A stretch of DNA of 39,625 nt from assembly GCA_039794845.1 (NCBI GenBank), contig JAUQVK010000052.1:1-39625 (forward strand), written 5' to 3'. Below, piece by piece: positions 3,158-35,718 of this stretch. This DNA is from Thermostichus sp. DRC_bins_24. GTDB taxonomy: Bacteria > Cyanobacteriota > Cyanobacteriia > Thermostichales > Thermostichaceae. Under the pieces are notes generated by a model that was not told the origin of the DNA, ran no database searches, and worked only from the letters and a program-made list of their open reading frames with translations. Made by a program: the position numbers and the translations under genes. Positions within the stretch are counted from its first letter, which is position 1, and every line of letters starts with the position of its first letter.

Positions 3158-3922
3158 GTGGTACAGCAGAGATTGGACAGCCATCCCCATCGCTTACATC
3201 ACCGCCCTGAAGCTGTGGAGCCCCCAACCATCGAGCACCTGCTGACTCGGCTGGAACAGTGCTTCGGGATCCCCAAACCCTCCAACACCGGTGGAGGGGT
3301 GCCTGTTTGTCCGGATCTGTTGGACGAGTTGGTGGGCATGATCCTCTCCCAAAACACCACCGTTCGCGTTCGCGGTGTGCAGCACTTTCACAACAGCAGC
3401 CGCGCCTTTCGCGCCCTCAAGGCAGCCTTTCCTTCCTGGGAAGCCGTTTTGGCTGCCGATCCCGAGGAGTTGGCGCTGGTCATCCGCTCCGCCGGCGGAT
3501 TGGCCAACCCCAAGGTCACTCGCATTCAAGAAGTTTTGGCCGCCATTCGAGAACGGCAGGGATCCCTAGAGTTGGGGTTTTTGGCGGAGATGGAAACCGA
3601 CAGCGCCCTCGACTATCTGCTCTCCTTGAAAGGGATGGGGCTGAAAACCGCCACCTGTGTGCTGTTGTTTGGTCTGGGCCACGATCTCTGCCCCGTCGAC
3701 GCCCACGTCCACCGGGTGGCCAATCGCCTAGGCTTGGTGCGGGCCAAACACCCCGACGATACTTTTGCGCAACTGTCCAGCCGCATTCCCGTCGGCAAAG
3801 CCTATTCCCTACACATCAACCTGATCCGCCTCGGCAAACGCATCTGCAAAGCCCGTATGCCCGAGTGTGGCCGCTGCCCGCTGCGCCAAGAGTGTCCTTC
3901 TGCCCTACTGCGACAACGCTGA
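3158..3922 (+). CDS. Endonuclease III-like HhH-GPD glycosylase with 4Fe-4S cluster (start uncertain)
   Basis: ILSQNTT, HhH motif LKGMGLKTA, PVDAHVHRV, and C-terminal CxxxxxxCxxCxxxxxC. Confidence 0.88.
   Translation: MVQQRLDSHPHRLHHRPEAVEPPTIEHLLTRLEQCFGIPKPSNTGGGVPVCPDLLDELVGMILSQNTTVRVRGVQHFHNSSRAFRALKAAFPSWEAVLAADPEELALVIRSAGGLANPKVTRIQEVLAAIRERQGSLELGFLAEMETDSALDYLLSLKGMGLKTATCVLLFGLGHDLCPVDAHVHRVANRLGLVRAKHPDDTFAQLSSRIPVGKAYSLHINLIRLGKRICKARMPECGRCPLRQECPSALLRQR
3362..3385 (+). repeat. 24-nt double-hairpin element inserted in frame in the nth-like gene
   Basis: GTTCGCGTTCGCGGTGTGCAGCAC reads as CGC-gttc-GCG plus GTG-tgcag-CAC. It adds 8 aa inside the SQNTxxxNS motif and has the same architecture as the unit at 21181-21282. 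Confidence 0.65.
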
Positions 3923-21180: not shown

Positions 21181-21282
21181 GCCTATCGCGTTAGCGGGCC
21201 GGAGGCCCATCGCGTCAGCGGGCCGGAGGCCCATCGCGTCAGCGGGCCGGAGGCCCATCGCGTCAGCGGGCCGGAGGCCCAT
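21181..21282 (+). repeat. Tandem array of a 24-bp unit, about 4.25 copies
   Basis: GCCCATCGCGTCAGCGGGCCGGAG occurs three times identically plus one variant (2 changes), with no spacers. Confidence 0.95.
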
Positions 21283-26816: not shown

Positions 26817-26914
26817 GAGTAGGCTCTGATCTCGATCCAAATAACCATTCAGAATCATTGCCTAGACTAACCGTTCTCAGAACTCCAAGGGAGAAATGCT
26901 CAGGTGAATCTGCT

Positions 26915-27068
26915 TACAGCCCTTTACGCCTAGGGCACGCTGGCGCGTTCGCCCATGGCGGCCCATAGGGCACCGCTAGTCATATGTAACAACCGTGGAA
27001 GTTGAGCTCTACCCCCTAAGGCTAAAGCAGCACAAGCCCTGCCGTAGAAAACCCGCGTAAGGGCTGTA
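26915..27068. mobile_element. 154-bp MITE-like element, the most complete copy of the family
   Basis: Perfect 10-bp TIR TACAGCCCTT/AAGGGCTGTA (extends to TACAGCCCTT(T)ACGC); TA at both ends; non-coding. Confidence 0.75.
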
Positions 27069-33660: not shown

Positions 33661-34668
33661 ATGCAGGATGCTTCTCTACAAGTTCGCGGTAGCGTGCCCT
33701 TGGCACCCAGAATTCTGGCCCTTGTCCCTGGAGGGATCGGCGACCAAATTCTCTTCTTCCCCACCCTGGCGGGTTTGCGGCAACGGTTCCCGGAGGCCGA
33801 GATTGAGGTGATGGTGGAGCCGCGGGCGGTTTCCGCCTATGAAGTTTGCCCCTCGGTGAATAGGGTGCTGACCTTCCCCTTTAAGGAGCAGATCTCGTTG
33901 GGTGATCTCAGCGATCTGTTGGGGCGGATTCGGGAGCGGCAGTACGATGCGGTGCTGAGCCTAGGGAAAGGGATTGGCGCAAAACTGCTGCTCTGGCTGA
34001 CCGGGATCCCGAAGCGGGTTGGGTATGCCCCGCCAGGGAAGCCTTGGCTCACCGATCCGGTACCCTTGAAGTCCGCCCAGTATGCGGCGGAAATGTACCA
34101 CGACCTGTTGCAGGGGTTTGGCATTTTCTCCAAGGCTGGGATCCCACAAATTCGCCTGAAAAAATCAGACCTAGAATGGGCAGAACAAGAACGCAAGCGC
34201 CTTCTGGGGGATCCGGGCAAAGATTACGTGCTGCTGCACCCCGGAGCCAGTCAACTGTCGGTGCAAAAAGGGATCCTGAAAATTTACCCCCCTGCCAACT
34301 GGGTTAAGGTGATCCAAGGCTTTCGGGAAAAACGGCCCGAGCTGCCGCTGGTGTTGGTATTGGGGCCAGAGGATGAGAAGCTGGCGGATGGCTTCCTGTC
34401 GCAACTGCCGGATTTGCCGCTGAGTCGGCCTGCCCAACTGGGACAACTGGCGGCCCTGATCGCAGGGGCAACACTGCTGTTGTGTACCGATAGCGCCCCG
34501 ATGCACTTGGCGGTTGCCACCCAAACCCCTCTCGTGGCTCTGTTCGGCCCAACGGATCCGGCGCGGTTGTTGCCCTCAGAAGGGCCTTTTCGGGCGGTCA
34601 CTGCTGCGGATGGGGTGATCGATTCCATTCCGGCTGAGCAGATTCTGCAGGTGATCTTCCCAAACTAG
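33661..34668 (+). CDS. Glycosyltransferase family 9 (RfaF-like)
   Basis: RILALVPGGIGDQIL, LLHPGAS, TDSAPMHLA and ALFGPT motifs. Confidence 0.92.
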   Translation: MQDASLQVRGSVPLAPRILALVPGGIGDQILFFPTLAGLRQRFPEAEIEVMVEPRAVSAYEVCPSVNRVLTFPFKEQISLGDLSDLLGRIRERQYDAVLSLGKGIGAKLLLWLTGIPKRVGYAPPGKPWLTDPVPLKSAQYAAEMYHDLLQGFGIFSKAGIPQIRLKKSDLEWAEQERKRLLGDPGKDYVLLHPGASQLSVQKGILKIYPPANWVKVIQGFREKRPELPLVLVLGPEDEKLADGFLSQLPDLPLSRPAQLGQLAALIAGATLLLCTDSAPMHLAVATQTPLVALFGPTDPARLLPSEGPFRAVTAADGVIDSIPAEQILQVIFPN

Positions 34669-34672
34669 GGCC

Positions 34673-35656
34673 ATGCTCACTTTAGAGGATGTTTATGCCG
34701 CCCAGGAACGGATTGGGCCACGGATTCACCGCACACCGATCCACAGCAGCCGCTCCTTAAATCGTCTAGTTGGGGCTCAGGTTTTCTGTAAGGCGGAATC
34801 GTTTCAGCGGGGCGGTTCGTTTAAGGTGCGCGGGGCAATGAACTTCCTCTCCAGCGTGGAGGAAGGATCCCGTCGGCGCGGGGTGGTGGCCTTCTCTTCT
34901 GGAAACCATGCCCAGGGGGTAGCGATTGCGGCGGCGGCGTTCGGGATCCCGGCAACCCTAGTCATGCCCAGGGACGCCCCCCAGGCCAAGATTCGGGCCA
35001 CGCAAAGTTATGGGGCGGAAATCCACTTTTATGACCGCCAAAGAGAAGACCGGGAAGCCCTAGCCCAGCAGCTGGCAGCCGAGCGCGGAGCCCTGCTCGT
35101 TCCGCCCTACGATGACCTGCGCATTATGGCCGGACAGGGAACCTGTGCCCTGGAGTTTTTGCAGCAGGTGCCTGAATTGGATGCACTGGTGGTGCCCCTG
35201 GGGGGTGGAGGTTTGCTCAGCGGCTGTGGGGTGGTGGCCAAGGCCCTCCATCCCAAGATTCGCCTCTACGGGGTGGAGCCGGAAAGCGGCAACGACTATG
35301 CCCTCTCCCTGCAACAAGGGGAACGGGTGCGGATCCCTCTGCCCGATACGATTGCCGACGGGATCCGCACCACCTGCCCAGGGATCCATCCTTTTCCAGT
35401 GATTCAGCGCTGGGTGGATGAGGTGGTGCTGGTGAAGGATGCGGAGATCCTACAGGCCATGCAGCTGCTGCTGACCCGCATGAAGTTGGTGATCGAGCCG
35501 ACGGGGGCGGTGGGGGTAGCCGCTCTTCTGGCCAGAAAAATCACTCTGCCTGGGCAACGGATTGGAGTGGTTCTCTCCGGCGGCAATGTGGATGCCGAAA
35601 TCCTGGCTTTGGCCTTGCAATCCGGTCATTCTAGCCATGCGGACGAAGGGACTTGA
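34673..35656 (+). CDS. PLP-dependent Ser/Thr dehydratase family enzyme (hydroxyaspartate ammonia-lyase-like)
   Basis: KAESFQRGGSFKVRGA, FSSGNHAQG, GGGGL and LSGGN motifs; no regulatory domain. Confidence 0.92.
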   Translation: MLTLEDVYAAQERIGPRIHRTPIHSSRSLNRLVGAQVFCKAESFQRGGSFKVRGAMNFLSSVEEGSRRRGVVAFSSGNHAQGVAIAAAAFGIPATLVMPRDAPQAKIRATQSYGAEIHFYDRQREDREALAQQLAAERGALLVPPYDDLRIMAGQGTCALEFLQQVPELDALVVPLGGGGLLSGCGVVAKALHPKIRLYGVEPESGNDYALSLQQGERVRIPLPDTIADGIRTTCPGIHPFPVIQRWVDEVVLVKDAEILQAMQLLLTRMKLVIEPTGAVGVAALLARKITLPGQRIGVVLSGGNVDAEILALALQSGHSSHADEGT

Positions 35657-35718
35657 ACCCTTACACCTTGCGGTACTAGATCCTAAGTCTAGCGCGTCTG
35701 CCATTCCGCCACGTCCGC
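35638..35718 (-). tRNA. trnL: tRNA-Leu(TAG)
   Basis: Reverse complement GCGGACGTGGCGGAATGGCAGACGCGCTAGACTTAGGATCTAGTACCGCAAGGTGTAAGGGTTCAAGTCCCTTCGTCCGCA has a long variable arm and anticodon TAG. Confidence 0.96.

Follow-up and report, generated by a model that had tools for sequence, protein, structure and literature searches.

An SDR-like 25-nt double-hairpin repeat in Thermostichus with adenine junctions and local same-strand clustering

The window analysed here, a whole stretch of 39,625 nucleotides at the start of contig JAUQVK010000052.1 of Thermostichus sp. DRC_bins_24, carries a gene for an EndoIII-like DNA glycosylase with a likely start at position 3173, whose top PDB matches are 8A5C/4UNF (Table 1). 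An initial annotation had reported that the SQNTxxxNS motif expected in this gene is split in frame by eight residues, and the gene does read SQNTT-VRVRGVQH-FHNS; five orthologs from the same genus read SQNTT-D-x-NS and are exactly eight residues shorter. The annotation placed a 24-nt insert at 3362..3385. That insert is real, but its extent was misjudged, the unit being 25 nt long (3363-3387) and replacing one target A for a net gain of 24 nt, or eight codons. The described layout, CGC-N4-GCG followed by GTG-N5-CAC, is found at 3365-3385, and the double hairpin stands, except that the second hairpin has four base pairs closed by a GNA triloop and not the 3-bp form proposed. The loop of the first hairpin reads GTTC here and GTTA in the relatives, against a family consensus of GNNA.

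Table 1. Positions of the glycosylase gene, its insert and the other repeat copies in the window.
Feature	Positions	Strand	Basis or context
EndoIII-like (HhH-GPD, 4Fe-4S) DNA glycosylase gene with insert	3158..3922	+	Pfam HhH-GPD
Left target bases CCG, at -5 to -3 in (C)YG^A	3360..3362	+	empty orthologs ACCG-A; family consensus
25-nt unit (x, T, 21-nt core, n, y), decayed copy	3363..3387	+	ortholog alignment; filled/empty pairs
Hairpin 1, CGC-GTTC-GCG	3365..3374	+	sequence, orthologs, loop counts
Hairpin 2, GTGT-GCA-GCAC (consensus XYZC-GNA-GZ'Y'X')	3375..3385	+	sequence; covariation
Tandem array, four copies of GGCC-GGA-GGCC type, period 24	21185..21281	+	between ebsA and larE
Possible third copy, decayed, loop CTT (non-GNA second loop), uncertain	33683..33707	+	near start of heptosyltransferase-like gene

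Full glycosylase orthologs were obtained from nine genomes of the genus, and their alignment places the eight residues in only four, namely the window's genome (G000), G010, G004 and G008, in each of which 24 extra bases follow ACCG. These bases are absent from the other five and likewise from the ortholog of a more distant relative. The four inserts differ from one another and from the family consensus, which argues for one old event in the common ancestor of the carriers; the window insert is an old, decayed copy that three relatives have in common with it. Insert carriers have Val in place of an Asp conserved in the empty orthologs; this Asp can vary, since the best PDB match has His at this position. 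Purifying selection on the gene persists despite the insert, with dN/dS of 0.12-0.18 among insert-bearing orthologs versus 0.08-0.18 among the others. A second nth-like gene lies on contig C88. A contig from another sequencing run spans 3204-3773 with 28 substitutions and no gap, indicating that the insert is not an assembly error, and none of the sequencing-run contigs compared skips the 24 nt. A contig in run X1 is identical, and the genome may derive from that run.

Elsewhere in the window, the same-layout unit with a changed second stem that had been noted near 21181-21282 resolved into four copies with a GGC/GCC stem at period 24, spanning 21187-21279. The same site between ebsA and larE also holds arrays in G010 (four copies) and G008 (at least 11, across an N gap), and such period-24 arrays fit either re-insertion at a copy's own 3' end or slippage. 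The candidate third copy shows no clean 24-nt gap in its G006 matches. At positions 26914-27068 lies one member of an abundant repeat, about 155 bp long (177 BLAST pieces genome-wide for a 400-base query) and probably a miniature transposon, with mini-hairpin loops and, on the minus strand, a stretch resembling the small dispersed repeats (SDRs) of Nostoc. Two tRNA genes lie on the minus strand (13452-13525 and 35638-35718), and Rfam at gathering scores returned nothing beyond them.

We counted the family with a pattern that has no pairing built into the second stem, and found 47 copies in G000 and between 14 and 297 per genome in all 11 relatives of the genus, compared to 0-3 matches in 19 other genomes; the reversed pattern gave 0-2 matches within the genus. 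The pattern is far commoner than chance, with 52 loose matches in G000 versus 0 and 2 in single order-2 and order-5 Markov simulations, and 39 of the 52 form a perfect 4-bp second stem. Across 382 single copies, the stem-2 columns carried 1.11, 1.08 and 0.55 bits of mutual information (at most 0.055 after shuffling); two of these columns each use three Watson-Crick pair types, and stem 1 occurs in a variant in which CGC/GCG becomes CCC/GGG. The stem covariation anticipated by the initial annotation is thus present, and its view that structure rather than sequence is conserved holds through the compensatory changes in stem 2. Copies are also present or absent between species, with a biased target site. 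In G005 and G006, which are about 94% identical at the nth locus, 28 of the 53 G005 sites that could be mapped are without a copy in G006. The family has been active more recently elsewhere than at the window's glycosylase site, and filled and empty sites, covariation and the G005/G006 differences bear out the proposal that a mobile, structure-defined micro-element is or was active in this lineage.

Among the matches listed, the commonest variant occurs in hot-spring Synechococcus, Thermostichus, Geitlerinema BBD 1991-9, a Thermosynechococcus, a Gloeomargaritales and one Chloroflexi bin. Seven loci of Geitlerinema BBD 1991-9 (L314, L317, L328, L329, L339, L342 and L358) have near-identical flanks, so in this genome the element rides inside a larger repeat. 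Across the phylum, a wider pattern found matches in 137 of 401 genomes; it is abundant in one family (f13, probably Nostocaceae), where it occurs in 44 of 46 genomes at up to 361 copies, mostly with a 3-nt first loop. Among viral contigs, one of 119 matches had a paired second stem, which is the chance level; BLAST against plasmids gave only matches at E near 1-3, and the N. punctiforme plasmid pNPUN01 contains no pattern match. By a crude gene caller, 110 of 254 single copies in G006 and 27 of 41 in G000 lie within called genes; the net gain is a multiple of three, which lets many copies survive there. One 1562-codon ORF of G000 (contig C63, 4611-9296) contains four in-frame sense copies. A literature search whose scope excluded the 2008 SDR survey, which may list these genomes, found no description of the family in Thermostichus.

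Comparison of filled and empty sites defines the junction. Of 494 single copies, 160 had an ungapped empty counterpart, in a reference set made up of G000, most of G006 (2.4 of its 3.05 Mb) and short loci from other relatives, and 119 pairs remained after removal of near-duplicates. The empty-site junction base is A in 101 of the 119 pairs, whereas at filled sites it is T in 75, A in 30, C in 12 and G in 2. Where length was left free, the net gain was 24 nt in 49 of 56 pairs, and in 40 pairs with identical six surrounding bases the empty base was A in 36. In 19 of these 36 clean pairs neither end base of the insert is A; the right end base is A in 14 pairs, and the left end base in 3. The insert is therefore best described as a 25-nt unit (x, T, 21-nt core, n, y) replacing one base. 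The insertion target is (C)YG^A, with only 49 of 119 empty sites being exactly YGA. The TTC direct repeat that the initial annotation noted around the insert is a chance feature: TTC-type repeats occur in 6 of 119 site pairs versus 6.2 after shuffling, and a target-site duplication was rejected on this count. Avoidance of stop codons was also rejected as the cause of the A-to-T change, which affects intergenic copies too (77 of 122 G-type copies end in T). Mismatch is raised at flank positions -4 and +3 (26% and 22%), as it would be if the insertion overwrote these bases, but codon third positions show part of the same rise; we found no signal of pairing between left and right flanks, between x and +3, or between core base 11 and -4.

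Target bases covary with element bases. When core base 12 is G, the flank carries C at position -5 in 204 of 221 copies, compared to 37 of 106 others, and this link is seen in every genome and gene context, although subfamily history could produce it without pairing. Among the 53 copies with a CCC stem, 42 have G at flank position -4 (33 of 38 in G005 and 9 of 15 elsewhere) and 11 do not. The corresponding counts are 17 of 475 for CGC-stem copies overall and 1 of 6 for those with the same second stem. The comparison is confounded by nesting and kinship: most CCC-stem copies sit inside another copy, in its GGA loop, and the 33 sites of G005 are not independent. G005 has undergone a lineage-specific burst of the CCC-stem variant, at 38 sites, mostly nested in other copies where flanks are seen. 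To judge from these sequences, the landing of the CCC-stem variant at GG^A suggests a self-encoded guide, and we infer that the first bases of the element, T-C-G, pair with the target Y-G-A. Such pairing would account for the near invariance of the T, for the A and G, and for the choice of C or T (by G-T wobble), and the T-C-C of the CCC-stem variant would read G-G-A. The full account, a self-guided 25-nt single-stranded DNA whose first bases would read the target and whose mini-hairpins would recruit a strand-transfer enzyme that swaps out one adenine, is possible but doubtful.

Copies also cluster by strand. Consecutive G006 copies less than 2 kb apart share a strand in 80 of 108 cases, compared to 54.7 when sense/antisense labels were permuted (0 of 5000 permutations reach 80), a tendency that has faded at 5 kb; in 23 neighbour pairs both copies lie antisense. 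Cores are identical in 20 of 108 neighbour pairs versus 3.8 expected. Within a subtype, copies close to each other agree at x, n, y and flank -4 more often than distant copies do, and the end bases are inherited. Sharing of flank -4 between neighbours is 0.68 versus 0.48; most other flank positions show no excess identity between neighbours, and homology to the donor flank beyond -4 was rejected. There is no genome-wide strand bias (137 versus 139) and no global replichore bias. The occurrence of like variants on the same strand nearby, antisense pairs included, points to local hopping of single-stranded DNA. Import of segments from other lineages could explain the shared variants but not the shared strand of neighbours.

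The loops bear on which nucleic acid folds. In 327 intact independent copies, loop 1 is GNYA in 270, GNRA in 41 and ANNA in 16, and loop 2 is GNA in 283 of 303 relaxed-scan matches. The sequences GCGNNAGC and GCGNAGC are the consensus of extraordinarily stable DNA mini-hairpins, which are nuclease-resistant, have little affinity for SSB and are far more stable than their RNA counterparts (PMC13037366). Both consensus hairpins of the family have these loops and the C-G closing pair; the available part of that source describes mini-hairpins at phage origins and promoters and does not mention mobile repeats. ViennaRNA predicts the same double hairpin with DNA or RNA parameters and does not separate the two. 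From the loops, we infer that the folded form is DNA rather than RNA.

Our preferred reading, to which we give a probability of roughly 0.4, is that the insert is an old copy of a 25-nt non-autonomous element that hops in cis as single-stranded DNA, with an IS200/IS605-type Y1 transposase acting in trans as its likeliest mover. The unit is predicted to fold into two DNA mini-hairpins, would find its single strand at the replication fork and likely hops in cis along it. There, a strand-transfer enzyme, most likely a Y1 (HUH) transposase, would act in trans; at (C)YG^A sites the unit stands where the empty site has a single base, mostly A. IS608-type TnpA works by pairing with a guide, targeting the lagging strand and binding hairpins (PMC6006769; PMC3201880), making an IS608-like reaction the best model. 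Y1 transposases are encoded in all 11 relatives of the genus, but also in genera without the element (27 of 31 genomes), so their presence is not specific. The sole Y1 match in G000 is a broken IS200/IS605-type tnpA remnant on the minus strand of contig C103 (about 11470-11900). The initial annotation's remark that no mobilising enzyme is recognised agrees with our searches, in which none was linked to the element: 62 of 77 listed proteins from copy clusters include no transposase or mobiliser, and the clusters lie in ordinary genes. Further points stand against this reading. IS608-type insertion is not known to lose a target base, whereas in 19 of 36 clean pairs neither end base matches the target A, and a pair of IS ends, with hairpins of 20-25 nt, is much longer than the element. 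The lack of a genome-wide strand bias and the exact YGA at only 49 of 119 empty sites also count against it.

Several hairpins in these genomes resemble IS ends. Five in G006 (L105:3150-3230 and four others) are read as IS605-type right ends by their motif; they carry a decayed copy at the tip, and one of them adjoins a tnpA. IS605-type ends of this kind are a possible carrier between genomes or species. In the IS-end-like hairpins at G000:C91 51387 and on G000:C96 (minus strand, script position 579), the tip itself is identical to hairpin 1 and is followed by CGGAGTC. They thus resemble the whole element and may perhaps represent its origin.

Other routes were weighed against this reading. 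Polymerase template switching, or capture of a nuclease-resistant oligonucleotide at the fork, would need no dedicated enzyme and accounts for local same-strand copying, inherited end bases and the loss of one base. The -4 base common to neighbours (0.68 versus 0.48) is in its favour, as are the nuclease resistance and poor SSB binding of mini-hairpins (PMC13037366). We nevertheless consider it unlikely, given the missing excess of flank identity between neighbours at most other positions and a fixed length (49 of 56) and A junction (101 of 119) that are hard to obtain from microhomology alone. Host topoisomerase I, which prefers C at -4 (PMC3467081), might instead cut and rejoin the single strand, making use of this preference. 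Target position -5 is occupied by C precisely when the element's own 3' end has the matching C (204 of 221), and this C lies four bases before a cut after A. The same route predicts that the target A is kept on the left, as seen in only 3 of 36 clean pairs, and leaves both the restriction to some lineages and the target shift of the CCC-stem variant unexplained; we hold it to be improbable.

Movement through RNA, by reverse transcription or RNA-templated gene conversion, has reportedly been discussed for the Nostoc SDRs. A slight excess of sense copies (156 of 270 point the same way as the nearest gene), the ability of the double hairpin to fold as RNA and the non-templated end changes, which are typical of reverse transcriptases, fit such a route. 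Yet the loops are mostly GNYA rather than the RNA-type GNRA (270 versus 41), and whole clusters lie antisense to their genes, leaving an RNA route with a low probability. That the repeat is not mobile at all, and reflects local duplication, slippage or chance sequence, could draw on the tandem arrays, which may grow by slippage; identical units at unrelated sites with empty orthologs, and 52 matches compared to 0-2 in simulations, speak against it, and the filled/empty pairs rule it out so nearly completely that we leave it only a token probability.

How elements of SDR size move has been a question since 2008, and this family supplies concrete, testable rules that narrow the candidate enzymes: a 25-nt unit, a duplication-free A junction, a hop range of a few kb on one strand, DNA-type loops and a variant with another target. 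The family also adds eight-residue loops to many working proteins in thermophilic cyanobacteria. If the element does guide itself, no smaller sequence-programmed mobile element would be known, and its junction rule would also account for the insertion of SDR5 in HIP1.

Among known systems, MITEs of the DDE type are set apart by terminal inverted repeats and target-site duplications, neither of which the family has. REP/REPIN sequences moved by RAYT (TnpA-REP) are, like the family, short hairpin repeats with many copies and local clusters; however, position frequencies of the family reveal no GTAG/CGTC tag, its copies often lie inside genes (110 of 254 in G006), and RAYT (NF047646) was above cut-off in none of 12 genomes of the genus. 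IS200/IS605 elements (IS608, ISDra2) and their non-autonomous derivatives are likewise hairpin-defined and strand-specific, produce no target duplication and have their target read by element bases, as would be the case here. In contrast to them, the family is far smaller, its guide, which in these elements lies 5' of the hairpin foot, would be 3 nt overlapping the stem, it often replaces one target base, and it has no linked tnpA.

The SDRs of Elhai et al. 2008 reportedly range from about 21 to 27 nt, conserve their structure by compensatory changes, nest in one another and occur within genes, and the likeness to them drawn by the initial annotation is apt in size, dispersal, structure conservation and in-gene copies. 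The Thermostichus family is similarly dispersed and multi-copy with a net length of 24 nt, keeps its structure by compensatory changes in both stems, has filled and empty orthologous sites (119 independent pairs) and nests, with CCC-stem copies inside the loops of other family copies; a 3-nt-loop form of its pattern is, moreover, abundant in f13. It differs in its 4-nt first loop and in its hosts, which are Thermostichus, hot-spring Synechococcus and a few other named genomes and not Nostocaceae alone. G000 contains 78 copies of HIP1 versus 4573 of GGGATCCC, the known hot-spring Synechococcus variant. Accounts of SDRs in citing papers (PMC4390886, PMC3116915, PMC3733652, PMC5861425, PMC2884548, PMC13756078) present SDR1-8 of Nostocaceae as very short dispersed repeats with no known enzyme (PMC5861425, PMC4390886, PMC13756078), and the available part of PMC5861425 states that no repeats resembling SDRs had been detected in HIP1-rich genomes outside Nostocaceae. 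SDR5 is 21 nt long and inserts between bases 3 and 4 of GCGATCGC (PMC4390886). It is reported only from within HIP1 (GCGATCGC), whereas the empty sites of the family are diverse (C)YG^A contexts; the SDR5 junction within GCGATCGC is CG^A and fits the YG^A target of the family. By the descriptions in these citing papers, the family is an SDR-like element that is new in host range and loop and that has testable rules of movement.
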